From: Alphaproteobacteria bacterium | GTDB lineage: Bacteria > Pseudomonadota > Alphaproteobacteria > CALKHQ01 | Direction of reading: 5' to 3' | Assembly: GCA_965227515.1 (NCBI GenBank) | Contig: CBDDFZ010000001.1 | Coordinates: forward strand, 160,001 to 224,000 | Length of the DNA stretch: 64,000 bases | Shown here: piece by piece, positions 32,383 through 41,612 of the stretch | How the letters are laid out: each line of letters begins with the position of its first letter | How positions within the stretch are numbered: the first letter of the stretch is position 1 | Program-made: the position numbers and the translations under genes | Notes under the pieces: model-generated | The model's input: the letters and a program-made list of their open reading frames with translations, nothing else | Database searches by the model: none | Told to the model about the DNA's origin: nothing

Positions 32383-32458
32383 GTCCCCATCGTCTAGTGG
32401 CCTAGGACATCGGCCTCTCACGCCGAAAACAGGGGTTCGACTCCCCTTGGGGACGCCA
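32383..32458 (+). tRNA. tRNA-Glu (CTC)
   Basis: GTCCCCATCGTCTAGTGGCCTAGGACA-TCGGC CTCTCAC GCCGA-...GGTTCGACTCC...CCA, 76 nt. Confidence 0.96.
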
Positions 32459-33971
32459 TCTTGCTACTACCCCCCTTCAGCTGGTCCAAAACCCAGAAGG
32501 GAAGCGACTTTCCGGCGGTTCGAACTCCGCCGTTTCGCGCATAGGCGGGTCTTTCGGCAAAAACCAGTTTCAGGGCCGTCCGCCTGTCCTCGAGCCGCTC
32601 CGAAATCCAGAGTTTCTGCGGGTTTCGCAAAAAGCTCATGGCGGTTCGAAATCTCTCATCAAAGCTTTGCGGCGCTACGCCGCGCTTGCGGGTTTGTCCG
32701 TCCAGCTCGGCCCGGCGTTCCTCCAGCGAGCGGATGCGGTTCTCGTAGGCCGCGATCACGGTCTCGCTGCTCGCCGCCATGATCCGGTCGAGCAAGGCTC
32801 CGACCTTCTGCTCAATTCCGGCCAGCTCTGCCTTGGCATCCCGGACCTGCTCCTCCGCGTCGGCGTTGTGGCTGTCCCACAGCTCCCGGAACAAAGCCAC
32901 GGCCTGGTCCGCCGCCTCCTCCGTGGGACAGAGGGCGCGCATCTCCTCATCGAAATCGCCTTCCAGCTTCTCGCGGCGGATGGACTTGCCGTAGCTGGCG
33001 CAGCCCTTCGTCGGGCAGAGATAATAGGGATACTGCCGAGCGCGCCCGCGCGAGTAGCAGGCGGTTAGCGGTTTTCCGCAATCGCCGCAGAGCACGAAAC
33101 CCCGCAACGGGAAGCTCTCATGCAGGTCCTTGCGGGCGGGCACCCTGGCCCCTTCCTTCAAGCGGCGCTGAATCGCCCGAAACGTGTCGAAACCGATGAG
33201 CGGTTCGTGCTTGGCAGGCTGGAGCCGCACGCTCCAATTCGCCAGGTCGATATATCCGGCGTAGAGCGTGTTGGTCAGGATGTCGGTGACGCGCTGATTG
33301 CGGATTTCGCCCCGGCTGTCGCGCGGGAACTCCGGGTGCGCGGCTAGGAAGCGCTTGACCTCGGCCTGGGTGTCGAAGCGTCCGCAAGCAAATCCCTCCA
33401 GCGCCTCGGCGACGATGGAAGCCAGGGGCTCGTCCCGGACCATCATCTTGCCGTGGCCGGAAACGCGCTCGAAGCGGTAGCCGAAGATCGCGCCAAACAC
33501 CCAGTAGCCGTTCATGGCCCGCGCCCGCATGCGGTTGCGGGTCTGCTCGCCGTTCTTCTGGCGCTGGTGTTGGGAGACTGAGGCCAACATGTTCTCGACC
33601 AACTGGCTGTCGGAGTCCTCGCCGAACTCGATGGACGGGGACTCCAGCCTGCCGCCGACCGACCCAATGGCGCTGCGCAGCTTGAGATGAGCTTCCAGGC
33701 CGCGCGCCAGGCGGCTGATGTCGTCGATGATGACGGCGCAGCTCTGCCCGCCCTGGCGCTTGAGGAATTTGAGCATGGCTTGCATGCCGGGACGGTCGAT
33801 CAGCCCGCCGGATACGTCGTCCCGGAAAACCTCGATCACCCGGTAGCCCTTGTACCTGGCATATTCCCGGCAGCGGGTTTCCTGGGAGGCGAGGCCGTCG
33901 CCCTGGGTGGTCTGCTTGGTGCTGGAGACGCGGCAATAGATCACCGCGCTTTGCTGGGTATGGGTCTTCAT
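32418..33971 (-). CDS. Large serine recombinase (resolvase + recombinase + Zn-ribbon domains)
   Basis: IYCRVSS catalytic motif, DDISRLAR, C.DCG...YY.C....C; 3' end overlaps tRNA-Glu on the antisense strand. Confidence 0.93.
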   Translation of the reverse strand: MKTHTQQSAVIYCRVSSTKQTTQGDGLASQETRCREYARYKGYRVIEVFRDDVSGGLIDRPGMQAMLKFLKRQGGQSCAVIIDDISRLARGLEAHLKLRSAIGSVGGRLESPSIEFGEDSDSQLVENMLASVSQHQRQKNGEQTRNRMRARAMNGYWVFGAIFGYRFERVSGHGKMMVRDEPLASIVAEALEGFACGRFDTQAEVKRFLAAHPEFPRDSRGEIRNQRVTDILTNTLYAGYIDLANWSVRLQPAKHEPLIGFDTFRAIQRRLKEGARVPARKDLHESFPLRGFVLCGDCGKPLTACYSRGRARQYPYYLCPTKGCASYGKSIRREKLEGDFDEEMRALCPTEEAADQAVALFRELWDSHNADAEEQVRDAKAELAGIEQKVGALLDRIMAASSETVIAAYENRIRSLEERRAELDGQTRKRGVAPQSFDERFRTAMSFLRNPQKLWISERLEDRRTALKLVFAERPAYARNGGVRTAGKSLPFWVLDQLKGGSSKMASPRGVEPLFSA

Positions 33972-34035
33972 CGCTTACGTCTTTCCGCCGCCGGATGACC
34001 GGGCGGCCTGTCTCATGTGCTCCTTGTCGATTCTA

Positions 34036-34856
34036 GGGCCTGTTGAGATTCATCGCGAGTTTATGACAGCTGCTGCGAGATGGATGATGGCGTTGAAGCT
34101 TGTGTCGGTTTTGTCTGCACGCATGGCGATTCGCTTGAACTCTTTGAGTTTGCAGAAGAAGTTTTCGATCAGATGACGCCATTTGTACATCTCGGCGTCG
34201 ATTTGCAGCGGGCTGGCGCGGCGCGGATGCTGGGATATGACGATCTTGGCACCGCGCTCGTTGAGGTCAGCAACGATGGCGCTGGTGTCGAACGCTTTGT
34301 CCGCGATCATCGCCTTGAAGGAGAGTCCGTCGATGAGCGGCGGCACGCCAACCGTATCGTAGCGATGGCCGGGCAGGAGCACGAAACGCACCAGATTGCC
34401 AAGCGCATCACACAGCGCGAGGATCTTCGTCGTCATCCCGCCCTTGGAGCGGCCGATGGCCTGGCTTTGAGTCCCCCTTTTGCGCCCTGGCCGTGGCGGT
34501 GCACCTTGACAATGGTGGCATCAACCATGGCGTATTCCATGTCCGGCTCGTCCAAGCAGGCCTCGAACAGCCGCACGAAGACGTCTGCTTTGACCCAGTC
34601 GCGGTATCGCTTAAAGACCGTGTTCCAAGGGCCAAAAGATGTCGGGAGATCACGCCACGGGCTGCCCGTACGCACCACCCACAGCACGGCTTCGACAAAG
34701 CGCCGGTTGTCAGCGCCACTGCGGCCCGGATCGCTCGGCTTGCCCAAGCAATGGGGTTCCATCTTCGCCCATTGGGCGTCACTCAGTACGAATCGTTCCA
34801 TCCGAAGCTTGAATCACAACCAAGCACGGAGAGGAATCCTGAATCTCAACAGGCCT
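34036..34856 (-). mobile_element. IS5-family element (IS427-like, two-ORF frameshifted transposase), 821 bp, copy 1
   Basis: TIR GGCCTGTTGAGATTCA, TA flanks; OrfA 34433-34801 and OrfB ending 34050; AAAAGGGGG slippery site; ADKAFD and YKWRHLIENFF motifs. Confidence 0.92.
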
Positions 34857-34858
34857 TA

Positions 34859-35906
34859 GAGCGGGATCGTTTTATGCGGAAGCGTATCCTGCATTGACGA
34901 TGTAGTTGTTGCATTCGTGTGGCTGGAACGCGTCGAGTAGTTTTCCGATACGCCGCCATGTGTCGTCGATGGTGCGCTCTGCGGCGCGCCTGAGCAGGTG
35001 CTTGAGCTTGGCGAACACCTGCTCGATGGGATTGAGGTCGGGGCTGTAGGGCGGCAGGAAGAGCAGCCTTGCGCCGGCCTGGCGCAGGGCGGCCCGTACG
35101 GCCTTGCCCTTGTGGCTGCCCAGGTTGTCCATGATGACGATGTCGCCGGGTTTGAGCGTCGGCACCAGGATCTGCTCGACATAGGCGAGGAAGGCCTGAC
35201 CGTTAATCGGGCCGTCGAAGACGCACGGTGCGGTGAGCTGGTCGCAGCGCAGGGCGGCGAGGAAGGTCAGGGTGCGCCAGCGGCCGTGCGGTGCCTTGCC
35301 GACGAGGCGACGACCGCGCCGGCTCCAACCGCGCAACGGCGCCATGTTGGTCTTGGCCCAGGTCTCGTCAATGAAGACCAGGCGGGCGGGATCAAGCTTT
35401 GCCTGATGACGCTTCCAGCGCGCGCGCCGCCGCGCCACGTCGGGACGATCCTGCTCGCTGGCCAGCGCGGTTTTTTTTGAAGCTCAATCCCTCGGCATGC
35501 ACAAAGCGCCAGATCGCGCCGTAGCTCACCCGGATGCCGCGATCGGCCAGCTCGCGCTGCAAGGAGCGCAAGGGAAGGTGCGGCTCGGCTGCCAAACGGG
35601 CCTGCACGAAGTCGCGATGCGGCGCCAATATGATCCGCTTGTGGCCACCGACCTTGCCCGGCGCAACACTCCCGGTGCGCCGATACCGCTGCGACCACTT
35701 CACAACCGCAGACACGCTCACATCGAACGCGGATGCCACAGAGCGAACCGTCTCACCGGCCATCACCCGGGCAACAGCACGCTCACGAAGATCATTCGAA
35801 TAGGGTCGACCCATCGCGCCAGCCTCCTCTCAAGACCAACACGTTGAATCAGATTGCCACCCGAGTCGGGAATCCCCTTTCGATTCTTCCAAAAAAGACC
35901 CCGCTC
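34859..35906 (-). mobile_element. IS630-family element, 1048 bp, copy 1
   Basis: GAGCGGG...CCCGCTC ends with TA duplication; HTH OrfA 35392-35814, A8 slippery run, DDE OrfB (FIDET, MDNL..HK, LPPYSPDLNPIE). Confidence 0.93.
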
Positions 35907-36204
35907 TAGGCCAACGGACCAGGTGTTTGAATCGCCGTCCTTACCGGCGGCACGCTCGCCAGTGTGCGAATGTCGCCGACAGCCCTGGCATTGCGGGCCT
36001 TTGCGCCCCACTCTAAATCATGTGGATAAGGGGTGCCTGCACCCCTGCCCTCCGGCGAGGATGGGGGTAGCAAGTGCAAGGAGGCTCCGAACGAGGGGCC
36101 CCGCAAAGCGGGGAGACGTTTGGATGCCTTGCGCGCGCGAGGGGCGAAGCCCCTTAGTGGACAAGAAATACTGACAGGATAGCAAAGCATGCACAGTAGA
36201 AATT

Positions 36205-36222
36205 AATCTTCAATCGAAGATT
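36205..36222. promoter_or_regulatory. Palindrome upstream of the island operon (possible operator)
   Basis: AATCTTC-AATC-GAAGATT, 20 bp before the ATG at 36243. Confidence 0.35.
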
Positions 36223-36242
36223 TTTGATGGTACATTTGAGCT

Positions 36243-36956
36243 ATGGCAATTTCACCGAGGTCAATAAAGATTCTCTGGGCTAATGCTGCGGGACGCTGCT
36301 CATTTGCCGGATGCCTCGAAAAGCTCTGCTTTGGCGAGGCTGCGGACCGCGCGCCGTTCACGCTAGGAGAAATGGCACATATACGCGGAGAACGACCGGG
36401 TTCAAACCGGCATGACCCAGATCAATCACCAGATGAGCGCGATAACTATTCGAACCTGATTCTGTTATGCCCAACTCATCATACGCTCATTGACAAGAAA
36501 GAAAATGAAGCCGAGTACACTGTTGACGTTCTCCACTCCATGAAAGAAAAGCATGAATATTTTGTCCTGGAGCGGCTAGATCGTATGAACGTGAAAGATA
36601 GAGCCGAACTCGTGGCCGAGATACATCGACTTCTTGCAGAAGATCGTGTTGTATGGGAACGATTTGGGCCACTTTCGGACCTCGCGCGGAAAAACCCTCA
36701 TAGCGACGAAGCCCATGCTGTCTGGGTTTCGGAACGCCTTTCTACCATCGTCCCGAACAACCGCCGGATTGTTGAGCTGCTCCGGGAAGGCCATGGATGT
36801 TTTGAGGCGGCCGACCAAGGTGCCATTTCACTATTTTTGATTCACTCCAGGAGCTATGAGAAATGGGTAAATGACGAAATATCCTACGAAGCAGTAGTTC
36901 GTTTCCCGCAGGAGTTCAACGAAATGATCGAGAGGTATGTTAATGCCAGCGTATAG
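36243..36956 (+). CDS. HNH endonuclease (Cap5/SAVED-associated type) with an uncharacterised helical C-terminal domain
   Basis: LW..AAGRCS..GC, GEMAHIRG...G..R and NLILLCPTHHTLIDK motifs. Confidence 0.85.
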   Translation: MAISPRSIKILWANAAGRCSFAGCLEKLCFGEAADRAPFTLGEMAHIRGERPGSNRHDPDQSPDERDNYSNLILLCPTHHTLIDKKENEAEYTVDVLHSMKEKHEYFVLERLDRMNVKDRAELVAEIHRLLAEDRVVWERFGPLSDLARKNPHSDEAHAVWVSERLSTIVPNNRRIVELLREGHGCFEAADQGAISLFLIHSRSYEKWVNDEISYEAVVRFPQEFNEMIERYVNASV

Positions 36957-37353
36957 CGATGAGTTTCCGTGGCCGAGCCATTACGGTCATTTCAATTTTT
37001 TTGAAGAAAGAATGTCTGAACATGGTGAAGTCACATCATATGAATATTTAGGCGATGGCCTATACAATATTGCTAGAGACGATGGGGGTGAGCTAAGGGT
37101 ATTTATTTGCGAGTGCTACAGTTATGGCATGGCTGAATATGAGGAGAGTGTGCAAGCGCATGGAAATATTGACGCAATTATCATCAATTCGAACTGGTGC
37201 GGCTATACGCCGGAACTAAAGAAACATTGCCGAGAACGAGAGGTCGGGGTATTTAACATCAGGGATTTTATGGCTGCACTGAATCGAGAGAAATATTGGC
37301 TCTATTTGAGCGAAGACGAAAAAGACCAGTTCGAACGATTGGGCTGGATTTAG
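36943..37353 (+). CDS. Hypothetical protein, possible restriction-endonuclease-like (Mrr/Card1-like) fold
   Basis: Overlaps the HNH stop; GAGAGG RBS; pattern VFICECY...DAIIINS..GYT.E.K..C.E..VGVF; fold is an inference. Confidence 0.7.
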   Translation: MPAYSDEFPWPSHYGHFNFFEERMSEHGEVTSYEYLGDGLYNIARDDGGELRVFICECYSYGMAEYEESVQAHGNIDAIIINSNWCGYTPELKKHCREREVGVFNIRDFMAALNREKYWLYLSEDEKDQFERLGWI

Positions 37354-37658
37354 TGGAAAATGTAACGGTATACGGATTTGGTTCATATTTTCGGGGCAGT
37401 AAGTTTGCAGAAGATATTGATATTTTGTTGCTTCACGAAACCACGTCTAAGAAGTCAATAAGCTTTGCCTTGCGGTGCAAGTCGCATATTCTATCAATAT
37501 TACAGAACAGTCATATTACAATTCTCTCCATCGCGGAGGAATCTCAAGTCCGCTTCATTGAGGCGTCCAGGGGGCAGTTTCTTGGACAAGTCAGTGAGGG
37601 TAGGTTTGATGAGGACATGCGGGCAATCGGTGAGAAGATTGCCTCCCAAACAACTTGA
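37353..37658 (+). CDS. Minimal nucleotidyltransferase (Pol-beta superfamily, MNT-like), ~101 aa
   Basis: VYGFGSYFRG....EDIDILL (GS + DxD motif); GTG start overlaps the preceding TAG (TAGTG). Confidence 0.75.
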   Translation: MENVTVYGFGSYFRGSKFAEDIDILLLHETTSKKSISFALRCKSHILSILQNSHITILSIAEESQVRFIEASRGQFLGQVSEGRFDEDMRAIGEKIASQTT

Positions 37659-37694
37659 GAACGCAAGGGAGTGATCTCGAATACCGCAACGAGC

Positions 37695-37765
37695 CGGGGG
37701 GATGCAACGGGGGGCGGCACGCCCCCCTTGCCAAGATGGTGTTGTAGTACAACACACATCTTGCG
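37695..37765. other. oriT-like structure (GC hairpin followed by a long palindrome)
   Basis: GCAACGGGGGGCG-GCA-CGCCCCCCTTGC followed by CAAGATG-GTGTTGTA-G-TACAACAC-A-CATCTTG. Confidence 0.5.
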
Positions 37766-37832
37766 GAACGCCTTAATCTCAGCTCCCATGCAGACCCGGC
37801 CCATGTGAACCGGATGTGCGCCTCAGTGTGTC

Positions 37833-37952
37833 TCAGCCGTCGCTCTGGTCATAATCCATAGAATCTGACAGCGCAGTGCCCCCCAGCAGCCTATTCCAGT
37901 CCTCCAGCGTCTGGAACAGGGTGTTCGAACAAAATCCTCTCGGGGACGCCAT
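37833..37952 (-). other. Detached alternative C-terminal coding segment of the serine recombinase (attP form)
   Basis: Reads MASPRGFCSNTLFQTLEDWNRLLGGTALSDSMDYDQSDG*, in register with the recombinase's MASPRG at attL. Confidence 0.7.
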
Positions 37953-38118
37953 TCGACGCCCAAAGTGTTGATGGCGCGTTTTTCCAGACAAGCTGCTGCT
38001 TACTGAGCCTCCTGCTGGTACAGAGTGGTGGTGCCGGCCGGGCGGTCGCGTTAAGACTCAGCCAAGGGGCGCAGGATGCTGCGCCTTGCGCAGACCAACG
38101 CACCTGACCGGACGCGAC

Positions 38119-38808
38119 GTGTCGACTGGACTGACCACCGAAGCCAAGGATGTCCTGCAGAAGACGGCGCTGATGTCCGCCCTCTCGGCGGAAACGGCGG
38201 CGCTCATCGCGTCCACCGCAAACCAGGTCACCTACAGCCGCGGTGCGACGATCTTCCATCGCGGCGATCCGGTAAGCGCGTTTTATGCCGTGGTGGACGG
38301 CTGGGTGAAGATCAGCCGGGTCACGCAGACAGGCAACGAAGCGGTGCTGGCGGTCTACACCCGTGGCCAGAGTTTTGCCGAGGCCGCGGTCTTTCTGTTC
38401 GGCGCCTACCCCGCCAATGCAGAGGCCGCTTGCGACACGACCTTGGTCAAGGTGCCGAGCAACCCACTGAAGGACCTCATCCTCGCCAAGCCGGACATCG
38501 CGCTGGCGATGCTTGGCTCGATGTCGCGGCATCTGCATGAACTAGTCGGCGATATCGAAGCCCTGAAGACCAGGACCGGCGTGCGCCGCGTCGCAGATTT
38601 CCTGTTGTCCCTGTCGCGTATCCCGGAGGGCGGGGAGACCATAATGCTGCCGTTCGAAAAGAGCCTGATCGCCGCCAAGATCGGCATTACGCCGGAAAGC
38701 CTGTCGCGGGCGTTCTCGCGCCTACGCGGCATCGGCATCGAGGCGCGGAACGGGCACGTCGACATCGCCGATGTGTCGGCGTTGCGCGCTTTCGCCAAGG
38801 GCGACTAG
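38119..38808 (+). CDS. Crp/Fnr family regulator (DNR/NnrR-like, no FNR Cys cluster)
   Basis: cNMP-binding fold (G.VKI, FAEAA) and HTH TPESLSR; upstream of nos; start uncertain. Confidence 0.88.
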   Translation: MSTGLTTEAKDVLQKTALMSALSAETAALIASTANQVTYSRGATIFHRGDPVSAFYAVVDGWVKISRVTQTGNEAVLAVYTRGQSFAEAAVFLFGAYPANAEAACDTTLVKVPSNPLKDLILAKPDIALAMLGSMSRHLHELVGDIEALKTRTGVRRVADFLLSLSRIPEGGETIMLPFEKSLIAAKIGITPESLSRAFSRLRGIGIEARNGHVDIADVSALRAFAKGD

Positions 38809-38844
38809 CCAGATCTGGAATCCCGTTATCGTTTTCCTTGCCGC

Positions 38845-38858
38845 TTGACGTTGGTCAA
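38845..38858. promoter_or_regulatory. FNR/DNR-type box
   Basis: Perfect TTGAC-N4-GTCAA palindrome upstream of the cytochrome c-nos operon. Confidence 0.75.
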
Positions 38859-38940
38859 GGCGCGACCCCTCGCGCAGGCAGATCATCCCCCTGGCGCCCA
38901 TGCCGGGCGCAACCGATCACGGTTTTGGGGGATCTTGGCA

Positions 38941-39381
38941 ATGAAAGCGATCCGGCGACTGTCTATCCAATTGTGCGCGCCAGTTTGCGCTGTCGTCGGC
39001 CTGGCCGGCGCGGCGACGGCCCAGGACGGCGATCCGGCCATGGGCGAGCGCGTCTTCACCCGCTGCAGCGCGTGCCATTCGCTGGAAGCGGACACCCATC
39101 TGGTCGGCCCCAGCCTGTCCGACCTTTGGGGGCGGGTGGCCGGCAGCCTGGACGGTTTCGAGAACTACTCCGACGCCATGAAGGCATCCGGCATCGTCTG
39201 GATGCCCGACACGCTGGATCCTTATCTTGAGAACGTCCAGGAGACGGTACCCGGCACCAACATGGCCTTCCCCGGATTGTCCAATCCGGAGCATCGCGCC
39301 CACCTGATCGCCTATTTCATCGAGCTGTTCGGCGCGCCACCGGACGACGCCGAGACCGGTGACGGCGAAAACGGCGGCTAG
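38941..39381 (+). CDS. Class I cytochrome c (c2/c550-like)
   Basis: Signal peptide, CSACH, GPSL, YSDAM and PGTNMAF motifs. Confidence 0.92.
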   Translation: MKAIRRLSIQLCAPVCAVVGLAGAATAQDGDPAMGERVFTRCSACHSLEADTHLVGPSLSDLWGRVAGSLDGFENYSDAMKASGIVWMPDTLDPYLENVQETVPGTNMAFPGLSNPEHRAHLIAYFIELFGAPPDDAETGDGENGG

Positions 39382-39422
39382 GCCCCGACCCGGAGAACGG
39401 CCACCGGCATTCTCAACCCGCC

Positions 39423-41612
39423 ATGAAAGCGCGCGCGACGATCCTGCTGCTGTTGCTGGCGGCCGCGCTCGGCGTATTGCCGCACGCGGCCAGCGGGCAG
39501 GCACCTCCGCTCGCCGGCACCGAGGCGATCTTCCCCGGAGCCGACCGGTTCGGCCCCGCCGAAGGGGATCCCCCTGCCCTGCCCGCCTATCGCGGCGACG
39601 AGCAGGTCGGCTGGGTGTTTCGCAACACCGACCTGGTCGACGCCATCGGCTATTCGGGCAAGCCGATCGTGGTCGATATCGGCATACGCCTTGATGGCAC
39701 GCTGGCCGGCGCGGCGGTTGTCGCCCACAGCGAGCCGATCCTGCTGGTCGGCGTGCCCGAGCAGGCCCTGACCGACTTCGTCGACAAGTACGCCGGCACC
39801 AACGTGCTGGATATCGACGCGTTCGGCGCCGCGCGGATGTCGGAGATCGAGATCATCAGCGGCGCCACGGTCACTGCCATCGTCGTCGACGACAGCATCA
39901 TCAAGGCGGCGCGGCGGTTCGCGGCGGCGCGCGGCATCGGCGGCGACGGTGCACTGGCCGCCGCATCGCAAGCGCCGCAGCGCCACATCGACATGACATT
40001 GGAAGGTACCGCCGACTGGCCAACCCTGGTCGGCGACGGCTCGGTCCGGCGCCTCCAGCTCAGCGTCGGCGACGTCAGCCGCGCGTTCGACGAACAGGGC
40101 TTGGGCGACGCCACGCAGCCGGAATCCGCCAACCCCGACGACGTGTTCATCGATCTCTACGTCGCCCTGGCGACGCCGCCGACCATCGGGCGCAACCTGC
40201 TTGGTGACCGGCAATACGACCGCCTGATCGCGGAGATGGAACCGGGCGAACAGGCGATCATCGTCGCCGGGCGCGGGCTCTATTCCTTCAAGGGCTCGGG
40301 CTATGTGCGCGGCGGCATCTTCGATCGCTTCCAGGTGCTGCAGGGCGAGGTCACGACCCGGTTTCGCGACCACGACCATCAGCGCATCGCCGCGATGGCG
40401 GCCGCCGGCGCACCGGTGTTCGACGAGATCGGGCTGTTCCGCATCCCGCCCGGCGTCGGCTTCGACCCGGCGGCCGACTGGCGGCTGGAGCTGCTGGTCA
40501 ACCGCCCGACCGGACCGATCGACAAGGTGTTCACCGCCTTCGACCTGACTTACCTGCTGCCCGCACACTACCTTGCGGAACCCGCACCGCAACCGGCGGC
40601 GACGCCGGACACCCCGCCACCCACGGACGACATGGCGTCCGACCAGGATCAGCTGTGGCAGGGCATCTGGCGGGCCCGCGCCGTCGACATCGCGATCCTG
40701 GCGCTCGCGCTCGGCTTCCTGACCATCGTGTTCTTCGCCCAGGACTGGCTGGTGCGCCGGCCGCGCCTGCTGCTGGTGGTGCGGGTGGGGTTCCTGATCT
40801 TCACCGTGGTGTGGATCGGCGGCTGGGCGTCGGCGCAGCTTTCCGTCGTCAACATCCTGACCGTGTTCGGCGCGTTCTTCGAAGGCTTCCGGTGGGAGTT
40901 CTTCCTGCTCGAGCCGCTGATCTTCATCCTCTGGTTCTCGCTCGCCGCCTCGTTGCTGTTCTGGGGACGAGGCGCCTATTGCGGCTGGCTGTGCCCGTTC
41001 GGCGCCGCGCAGGAGCTGATCAACCGCGCCGCCAAGGCGCTCAAGGTGCCGCAGATCAAGGTGCCGTTCTGGCTGCACCAGCGGCTGTGGCCGATCAAGT
41101 ACCTGATCTTCCTGGGCCTGTTCGCGGTGTCGCTCTACGGCCTGGGCGAGGCCGAGGTGCTGGCCGAGGTGGAGCCGTTCAAGACCGCGGTCGTGCTGCA
41201 CTTCGACCGCGAGTGGTACTTCGTCGCCTACGCCATCGGCCTGCTCGCCATCGGCGTGTTCATCGAGCGGTTCTTCTGCCGCTACCTGTGCCCGCTGGGC
41301 GCGGCGCTGGCGATCCCGGGGCGGCTGCGCATGTTCGACTGGCTGAAGCGCCGCCACCAGTGCGGCACCGAATGCCAGATCTGCGCCCACGAATGCATGA
41401 TCCAGGCGATCCATCCCGAGGGCCAGATCAACCCCAACGAGTGCCTGTACTGCCTGCACTGCCAGCAGGTCTACCACGACGACCACCACTGCCCGCCGCT
41501 GATCAAGCGCCGCAAACGGCGCGAACAGCGCGCGGCTGCCGCCGGGCCGCCGTCGCTGGTGCCGCACCACGCGCGGCGCAAGCAGGCGGCTGCGACCCCC
41601 CAACCAAGCTGA
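39423..41612 (+). CDS. nosR: NosR (FMN-binding, Fe-S membrane protein)
   Basis: GYSGKPI, ISGATVT, CGWLCPFGA, FCRYLCPLGA and C-terminal ferredoxin Cys motifs. Confidence 0.95.
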   Translation: MKARATILLLLLAAALGVLPHAASGQAPPLAGTEAIFPGADRFGPAEGDPPALPAYRGDEQVGWVFRNTDLVDAIGYSGKPIVVDIGIRLDGTLAGAAVVAHSEPILLVGVPEQALTDFVDKYAGTNVLDIDAFGAARMSEIEIISGATVTAIVVDDSIIKAARRFAAARGIGGDGALAAASQAPQRHIDMTLEGTADWPTLVGDGSVRRLQLSVGDVSRAFDEQGLGDATQPESANPDDVFIDLYVALATPPTIGRNLLGDRQYDRLIAEMEPGEQAIIVAGRGLYSFKGSGYVRGGIFDRFQVLQGEVTTRFRDHDHQRIAAMAAAGAPVFDEIGLFRIPPGVGFDPAADWRLELLVNRPTGPIDKVFTAFDLTYLLPAHYLAEPAPQPAATPDTPPPTDDMASDQDQLWQGIWRARAVDIAILALALGFLTIVFFAQDWLVRRPRLLLVVRVGFLIFTVVWIGGWASAQLSVVNILTVFGAFFEGFRWEFFLLEPLIFILWFSLAASLLFWGRGAYCGWLCPFGAAQELINRAAKALKVPQIKVPFWLHQRLWPIKYLIFLGLFAVSLYGLGEAEVLAEVEPFKTAVVLHFDREWYFVAYAIGLLAIGVFIERFFCRYLCPLGAALAIPGRLRMFDWLKRRHQCGTECQICAHECMIQAIHPEGQINPNECLYCLHCQQVYHDDHHCPPLIKRRKRREQRAAAAGPPSLVPHHARRKQAAATPQPS

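Follow-up and report, generated by a model that had tools for sequence, protein, structure and literature searches.

A mobile module of an HNH nuclease, a Mrr-like protein and a minimal nucleotidyltransferase: probably an undescribed anti-phage or addiction module

In the cyclic-oligonucleotide-based antiphage signalling system (CBASS), the HNH effector Cap5 is triggered by the signals of nucleotidyltransferases that resemble cGAS and DncV (CD-NTases), and in the HEPN-MNT (higher eukaryotes and prokaryotes nucleotide-binding/minimal nucleotidyltransferase) modules, MntA reportedly AMPylates HepT and thereby acts as a brake. SPARHA, which pairs a short prokaryotic Argonaute (pAgo) with an HNH-APAZ protein, is presented in excerpts of PMC12738770 as an immune effector that is switched on by the assembly of HNH tetramers or filaments, and that belongs to a clade including Cap5. 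In Hailong, as outlined in excerpts of PMC13434031, HalB makes tyrosine-primed oligo-dA, and the HalA channel is kept closed by this product until a phage protein removes it. Here, these systems are compared with a trio of genes, g1-g2-g3, which are encoded by overlapping reading frames on the same strand at positions 36243-37658 of a 64,000-nt window (the whole stretch of DNA analysed, positions 160,001 to 224,000 of contig CBDDFZ010000001.1, assembly GCA_965227515.1) from an Alphaproteobacteria bacterium. The trio probably represents an anti-phage or addiction module that has not been described before. We regard it, with moderate confidence, as a self-contained, horizontally mobile conflict module that most likely serves as an abortive-infection-type anti-phage system.

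The three genes are as follows (lengths in amino acids, aa):

36243..36956, plus strand: g1, 237 aa, Cap5/SPARHA-type HNH nuclease domain followed by a four-helix bundle
36943..37353, plus strand: g2, 136 aa, protein with an Mrr-like restriction-endonuclease fold (FICECY, WCGY..K) that lacks the catalytic motif
37353..37658, plus strand: g3, 101 aa, minimal Pol-beta-fold nucleotidyltransferase (GS, DxD, H28, K43)

The tight coupling of these genes, which a preliminary description of the DNA had reported from its letters alone, is evident both in the open reading frame (ORF) listing and in the raw sequence. The ATG of g2 (36943) falls 14 nt inside g1, and the resulting 136 aa is the length of nearly all g2 homologues, while the GTG start of g3 (37353) and the TAG stop of g2 have a single G in common ('TAGTG').

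The g1 protein consists of an HNH domain (residues 1 to ~115) and a conserved four-helix bundle (~115-237) marked by GPxS, PNN, H201 and Y205. The zinc/HNH motif set that had been picked out earlier is supported by a Pfam HNH_2 match (3.2e-6) and by the zinc/catalytic residues C19, C24, H46, N71, C76, H79, H80 and D84, all of which are invariant in 120 homologues; more than 1,000 homologues of g1 are present in the databases. In PADLOC (release v2.0.0), g1 matches the Cap5-type SAVED_HNH and endonuclease-effector models at 3.8e-31 and PDC-M68A at 6.6e-29, in each case over residues 1 to ~115 only. A profile of the 120 homologues finds its best match in the SPARHA HNH-APAZ effector 9om4_A (E 1e-25, residues 1-117), and it matches Cap5 structures at 1e-14 to 7e-17, again over residues 1-117 only. 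The GE-x-AH of g1 aligns with the GE-x-AH of 9om4_A and is spaced like the bridge glutamate (E50) and the catalytic histidine (H53), at which mutation abolishes the activity of MllaSPARHA according to excerpts of PMC12738770. The g1 HNH is much closer to the oligomerization-gated Cap5/SPARHA clade than to McrA-type enzymes.

Beyond the HNH domain this likeness ceases. The resemblance to Cap5 ends at residue ~117, where the four-helix bundle takes the place of SAVED, which g1 lacks. Similarly, g1 (237 aa) has no APAZ domain, its match covers residues 1-115 of the 435-aa SPARHA chain, and its partners are g2 and g3; no Argonaute or Piwi gene was found among the 25 commonest neighbour families listed. 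PDC-M68A shares with g1 the N-terminal HNH and a similar length (profile 253), but only profile positions 6-114 match and the C-terminal halves differ. The C-terminal region had been described as a helical domain of an unfamiliar kind, and the structural searches agree, as no informative relative of the bundle was found: Foldseek of g1 against the PDB matched the HNH domain alone, and a search of the ESM Atlas with the bundle gave a best score of 0.77 and no lead. A bundle-only search returned 70 matches (proteins of 130-415 aa), which were all HNH plus bundle or fragments thereof, and none of them carried the bundle on another effector. In addition, no HEPN family matched g1 or g2 in Pfam at E <= 1, the alignment of g1 against nine HepT sequences reached an hhalign probability of 1.4%, and no arginine lies 4-6 residues before the invariant H201, that is, there is no Rx4-6H motif.

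The second protein, g2, had no match in Pfam, PADLOC or NCBIfam at E <= 1, and an ESM Atlas search with it returned just its own unnamed family. There are 263 close database homologues, with ~51-63% identity among the 120 listed, and an exhaustive profile search yielded 324 representative clusters at E <= 0.001 (136 at E <= 1e-10), so that the family comprises at least 324 clusters at 50% identity. The AlphaFold2 model of g2 (predicted local distance difference test score, pLDDT, 88.6) has the alpha/beta fold of restriction endonucleases. Its best VIA-align matches are the nuclease domain of Cdn1 (7.0), AF1548 (6.8), VC1899 (6.5), Can2 (6.3), Bax1 (5.7), NucS (5.7), the type ISP Mrr domain (5.6) and Card1 (5.3). 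Foldseek against the PDB gave nothing at E <= 0.001, the top matches being RPB5, Cap4 and Bax1 at 2e-3 to 5e-2; hhalign of g2 against ten Mrr_cat sequences reached a probability of 75% (E 2.5e-5).

Mrr-type PD-(D/E)xK nucleases, such as Mrr_cat and the nuclease domains of Can2, Card1 and Cdn1, share this fold with g2 but carry the catalytic D...(D/E/Q)xK, which g2 does not have. The Q-x-K of Mrr pairs in hhalign with I55-C56-E57 of g2, the catalytic lysine falling on E57, and no conserved aspartate is present on the preceding strand in the g2 alignment. Distant g2 clades have T-N-x-Y or L-N-E-Y at the Q-x-K place. Since the catalytic D...(E/Q)xK residues are missing, g2 is probably not a second nuclease, and it is most likely a non-catalytic Mrr-like domain. 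Thus, of the Mrr/Card1-like nuclease proposed earlier, the fold stands and the nuclease catalysis probably does not. Two further ideas about g2 were dropped: C56, C58, C86 and C96 as metal or Fe-S ligands, as both the Klebsiella plasmid variant and the fused clade described below have other residues in their place, and Y59 as a stand-in for the catalytic lysine, as hhalign aligns it with an aromatic position found in Mrr too. Seven proteins of ~198-237 aa (P0366, P0326, P0375, P0388, P0400, P0423 and P0424) match the g2 profile in two stretches each, and in P0366 and P0326, as read, these are tandem g2-like domains, an arrangement that suggests g2 as a dimer. The 1779-aa P0331 matches the profile in nine short stretches and has HMG14_17 as its sole Pfam match; it is probably a low-complexity artefact and not a relative of g2.

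The third protein, g3, retains an intact GS-x-DxD motif, as had been stated before: across 55 sequences there is no variation at G10, S11, F13, D21, D23, H28, K43, L58 and F68. Its family matches are weak. In Pfam it reaches 24.7 bits with DNA_pol_B_palm, just under the cut-off of 25, and it has further sub-threshold matches to Polbeta and NTP_transf_2; its profile finds the palm of DNA polymerase beta alone in the PDB (E ~0.05), and it scores 14.7 bits with the NCBIfam model NF047752 (MntA_antitoxin), for which the cut-off is 60. In PADLOC, it matches no cyclase model at E <= 1, and only PDC-M05A at 0.028. The label of minimal nucleotidyltransferase therefore holds for the size (~101 aa) and the Pol-beta fold, but not for membership of the MntA group; the nearest Pfam model is the PolX palm.

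When whole systems are compared, the trio does not fit CBASS, as the preliminary description had already argued, since g3 has 101 aa versus ~300-400 aa in a CD-NTase and SAVED is lacking; furthermore, the trio has an additional dead Mrr-like protein and is ordered with the effector first. HEPN-MNT modules are likewise small, mobile and tightly coupled, and also combine a ~100-aa GS/DxD nucleotidyltransferase with a nuclease partner that has a helical domain. The same description had set the trio apart from them as well, and this separation is upheld: g3 does not count as an MntA equivalog, no relation to HepT is seen for the helical domain of g1, the toxin of the trio would be a DNase (HNH) whereas the HepT toxin is an RNase, and there is a third protein, g2. 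Control by the product of a nucleotidyltransferase makes Hailong, compared here by its description only, a possible precedent for g3, but its effector HalA is a membrane channel instead of an HNH nuclease, and it has no Mrr-like partner. The trio architecture is absent from the PADLOC v2.0.0 models, PDC-M68 sharing just the HNH half. No published description of the trio was found in literature text, while supplementary tables of candidate systems could still list it. The trio would be a nuclease conflict module that is associated with a nucleotidyltransferase and has both a new regulatory platform and, in g2, a new protein family.

The conservation of the trio as one unit was examined in a locus scan with one genome per species, which gave 56 loci encoding g2. 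Full-length g1, g2 and g3 are present in this order (tblastn) in 52 of them, with overlapping frames, and the three-gene order is thus kept among homologues. An overlap of g1 with g2 is seen in 32 of these 52 loci, the remainder having a gap of at most 7 nt, and the one-base overlap between the g2 stop and the g3 start is likewise seen in 32 of 52. According to the record titles, the hosts of the 56 loci include a Planctomycetia metagenome-assembled genome and two organisms of Desulfobacterota type besides Alpha-, Beta- and Gammaproteobacteria. The four incomplete loci comprise one at a contig edge (L025), one that has lost the HNH domain beside a transposase gene (L041), one with the same loss and a transposase-encoding insertion in g2 (L055), and one that is decayed (L056). 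No conserved fourth gene was found, as in either of two scans the 196 nearest neighbour ORFs are spread over more than 90 Pfam families. Prediction of a complex of g1 and g3 with g2 as the partner gave a score of 0.31, the mark being 0.32 (runs 0.28, 0.59 and 0.31), which speaks neither for nor against binding.

Natural fusions lead to the same view of the trio as one unit. Among the longer proteins returned by the exhaustive g2 profile search, P0416 (465 aa) joins the HNH, the four-helix bundle, a g2-like domain and the nucleotidyltransferase in a single chain; P0370 contains the bundle, g2 and the nucleotidyltransferase, and P0307, P0362, P0406 and P0425 are g2-nucleotidyltransferase fusions. 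The fused clade is a sister clade of the split trio, and the GS/DxD, HNH and bundle GPxS and PNN motifs are kept both in this clade and in the Klebsiella plasmid clade. A metagenome scan with the fused clade gave 35 loci, of which the 31 near-full matches were examined and the partial L091-L094, mostly at contig ends, were left out. The ~465-aa frame is free of stops in 29 of the 31; L075 has one stop, and L090 matches residues 1-412 only. The fusions, which include all four domains as well as g2-g3, indicate that the three proteins work as one unit, and gene fusion speaks strongly for their physical joint action. A single variant, P0399 (392 aa), carries the bundle and g2 behind an N-terminal stretch that weakly matches HTH_31 (E 0.0011) and stands in place of the HNH, and may represent a swap of effector or regulator.

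As to the mechanism, g1 would be the effector. The HNH domains of its clade (Cap5, SPARHA) cut DNA only once tetramers or filaments have assembled, and the four-helix bundle of g1 would take the place of the SAVED or APAZ regulatory domain. Together with this bundle, g2 and g3 may form the sensor and regulator that decides on HNH assembly. The switch could be nucleotidyl transfer by g3, acting either through NMPylation (transfer of a nucleoside monophosphate) or tyrosine-primed tailing of a partner, or through a short nucleotide product that would be read by the bundle. Candidate acceptors for such a mark would be the invariant Y59 and Y88 of g2 and Y205 of g1. Being so small, g3 is more likely to nucleotidylate a protein or primer than to make a cyclic oligonucleotide. 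We infer the defence role, the dependence of activation on oligomerization, the nature of the g3 reaction and the part of g3 as activator or restrainer, for which both the trigger and the brake have a precedent in the systems introduced above.

Several observations weigh against the anti-phage reading. The third-carboxylate position of g3 is occupied by H, D, S, N or E, and hence its activity is not assured. On the Acinetobacter plasmid pMsp22, an IS66 element cuts g3 at residue 70 and leaves g1 and g2 intact, a single case (n=1) that speaks mildly against g3 as an indispensable brake. None of 50,697 phage records contains a g2 match, just one viral contig carries the trio, and the majority of the immediate neighbours are housekeeping genes. 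Known defence and toxin-antitoxin genes do occur nearby: among 101 neighbours there are one GajB, one HerA and two DUF4365 genes, among 95 there are two GajA, two SIR2_2, one GmrSD_N, one KAP and one SNaCT11, and among 91 neighbours of the fused form there are two TIR_2, three BrnA, two PIN, two PemK and one HerA. Taken as raw counts, these amount to a modest association with known defence genes.

A type VII-like toxin-antitoxin (addiction) module, which would stabilize islands and plasmids and have no dedicated phage role, is an unlikely account: g3 would be an antitoxin that steadily nucleotidylates g1 or g2 as MntA does HepT, and the HNH would become toxic once g3 is lost. To our knowledge, protein-AMPylating antitoxins (HepT-MntA) are the sole minimal nucleotidyltransferases of ~100 aa to which a role has been assigned, which is a point for this explanation, as are the weak matches of g3 to the MntA, Polbeta and NTP_transf_2 models, the presence of the trio on plasmids and islands, and the removal of the HNH domain by insertion sequences (IS) in two loci. 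It also agrees with the evolution of g3, which is the fastest of the three (mean column identity 31% versus 57-61% for g1 and g2). Fusions of HEPN and MNT are reported in excerpts of PMC12839542, and a fused trio is therefore compatible with a toxin-antitoxin reading. Nevertheless, the explanation leaves g2 without an obvious role and has to accommodate an order with the toxin first and the nucleotidyltransferase last, a g3 score far under the MntA equivalog cut-off, the failure of g1 to align with HepT and, in pMsp22, intact g1 and g2 next to a truncated g3.

Signalling would be dispensable if the trio were a direct restriction-like or DNA-end-processing set, in which the HNH cuts foreign or modified DNA to which the dead Mrr-like domain has bound, and a PolX-like palm tails or caps the 3' ends. 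This is decidedly unlikely, even though by sequence g3 has its best Pfam and PDB matches in the DNA polymerase beta palm, g2 is Mrr-like and the Escherichia coli copy adjoins a restriction-endonuclease gene; a palm of 101 aa that lacks fingers and thumb is unlikely to work as a DNA polymerase by itself, g1 is much nearer the Cap5/SPARHA clade than McrA-type enzymes, no recognizable DNA-binding or modification-reader domain was found in the trio with Pfam, and no conserved methyltransferase partner occurs among the 25 commonest neighbour families listed. Finally, it is very improbable that there is no functional unit at all, that is, that decaying cargo or three unrelated small genes merely travel together. 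Some copies are indeed disrupted by IS elements, but in 52 of 56 loci, from at least four classes, the trio is complete and colinear with overlapping reading frames, the catalytic residues are invariant, and natural fusions join all three proteins, so that conservation and fusions already contradict this possibility.

The distribution of the trio, which we continue to read as an abortive-infection-type module, points to horizontal mobility. Its GC content lies below that of the flanks in 45 of the 47 loci with enough flanking sequence (median difference 8 points), g2 is present in none of 40 related genomes, and in 16 of 56 loci the ~6-kb flanks contain a tRNA or tmRNA gene, which in six is no more than 650 nt away. 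Among 5,426 complete E. coli genomes the trio was found in one, where it immediately follows the integrase of a thrW (tRNA-Thr) island and lies beside the restriction-endonuclease gene mentioned above. On this E. coli O169:H41 chromosome (NZ_CP062824.1, L117, 10114-10419), the homologue of g3 (TTG start, 101 aa, GFGS...DVDLL) lacks an annotation in RefSeq, where only the HNH gene and the g2 gene are annotated at the trio; with g3 missing from the annotation, the trio could escape gene-neighbourhood screens. Four plasmid records contain g2. The conjugative IncFIB/IncHI1B plasmid pS141.1 of Klebsiella pneumoniae (L057, 4325-5643) has a distant split trio, with a g2 that is 23% identical and lacks the four cysteines and with a third gene that is annotated merely as a 61-aa hypothetical, lying between the integrating-conjugative-element transfer genes TIGR03752 and TIGR03757. 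In the one IMG/VR contig that carries it, the trio stands between a DUF4365-TPR gene and prophage terminase, capsid and portal genes. The genome that is the source of the window also has three ordinary HepT-like (HEPN toxin) loci (C2:303443-303730, C1:1050633-1050923 and C1:1951024-1951332), hence canonical type VII-type modules coexist with the trio.

In the window itself, the trio lies in an island at a tRNA gene, the remaining features of which are:

32383..32458, plus strand: tRNA-Glu (CTC), the integration site of the island (ARAGORN)
32442..32459, no strand: left direct repeat, the tRNA 3' end (last 17 nt plus one base; repeat family D8)
32418..33971, minus strand: large serine recombinase with a Resolvase N-terminal domain and a recombinase zinc ribbon (PF00239 2.6e-27, PF13408 4.6e-9)
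34032..34860, minus strand: IS4/5-family insertion sequence with 21-nt inverted repeats (I3), transposase in two frames (DUF4096, DDE_Tnp_1)
34857..35908, minus strand: DDE_3 (IS630-type) insertion sequence with 28-nt imperfect inverted repeats (I2), HTH and DDE_3 ORFs in two frames
37935..37952, no strand: right direct repeat and right end of the island, 16/18 identical to the tRNA 3' end (D8)

The direct repeats bound a 5.5-kb island at tRNA-Glu. As only the serine recombinase, two insertion sequences and the trio lie between them, the trio is the sole cargo unrelated to mobility, in agreement with what had been recognized from the letters. The AT-richness that had been noted at the same time is confirmed by a GC content of 0.43-0.50 over 36200-37800 versus 0.62-0.72 in the flanks on both sides, which places the trio 15-25 points under the host.

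Some details of the island and its surroundings deserve a brief mention. The serine-recombinase ORF reaches 41 nt into the 3' end of tRNA-Glu, and it seems that either the attachment site lies inside the recombinase reading frame or the true recombinase stop is earlier. The IS4/5-family and DDE_3/IS630-type elements abut, and the transposase of each is split over two frames, which may reflect programmed frameshifts or decay. A G+C-rich inverted repeat (GGGGGGCG...CGCCCCCC) without a T run is found at 37700-37727, 45 nt past the g3 stop; the terminator scan did not call it, and it may be the transcript end or a piece of the attachment region. Just beyond the island, 38086-41612 encodes a Crp/Fnr-type regulator (cNMP_binding and HTH_Crp_2), a 178-aa ORF that has a CSACH haem-c motif but matches nothing in Pfam, and a membrane protein of 729 aa with Fer4_5 domains and a NosR-like appearance, together suggesting a denitrification (nos) neighbourhood.

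To conclude, it is possible, if doubtful, that the trio represents a third regulatory platform for Cap5/SPARHA-type HNH nucleases, in which g3 and the dead g2 would write a nucleotide mark, by NMPylation or as a Hailong-like tyrosine-primed oligonucleotide, and the new bundle receptor would read this mark and permit or block HNH tetramerization, an arrangement that would also exist as a ~465-aa single chain. If true, this would be a minimal self-contained nucleotide-gated suicide nuclease that is unrelated to CD-NTase/SAVED signalling. The platform would be unusually small, as it consists of 136 and 101 aa and a four-helix bundle and has a dead nuclease and a minimal nucleotidyltransferase as its building blocks, and the occurrence of both split and fused forms makes it tractable for structure and biochemistry. 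The Cap5/SPARHA HNH module is a widely re-used immune effector, and every new platform that controls it reveals a further mode of infection sensing. Should g3 mark a protein or make a signal, nucleotide-based immune control would extend past CD-NTases, cyclases and HalB.

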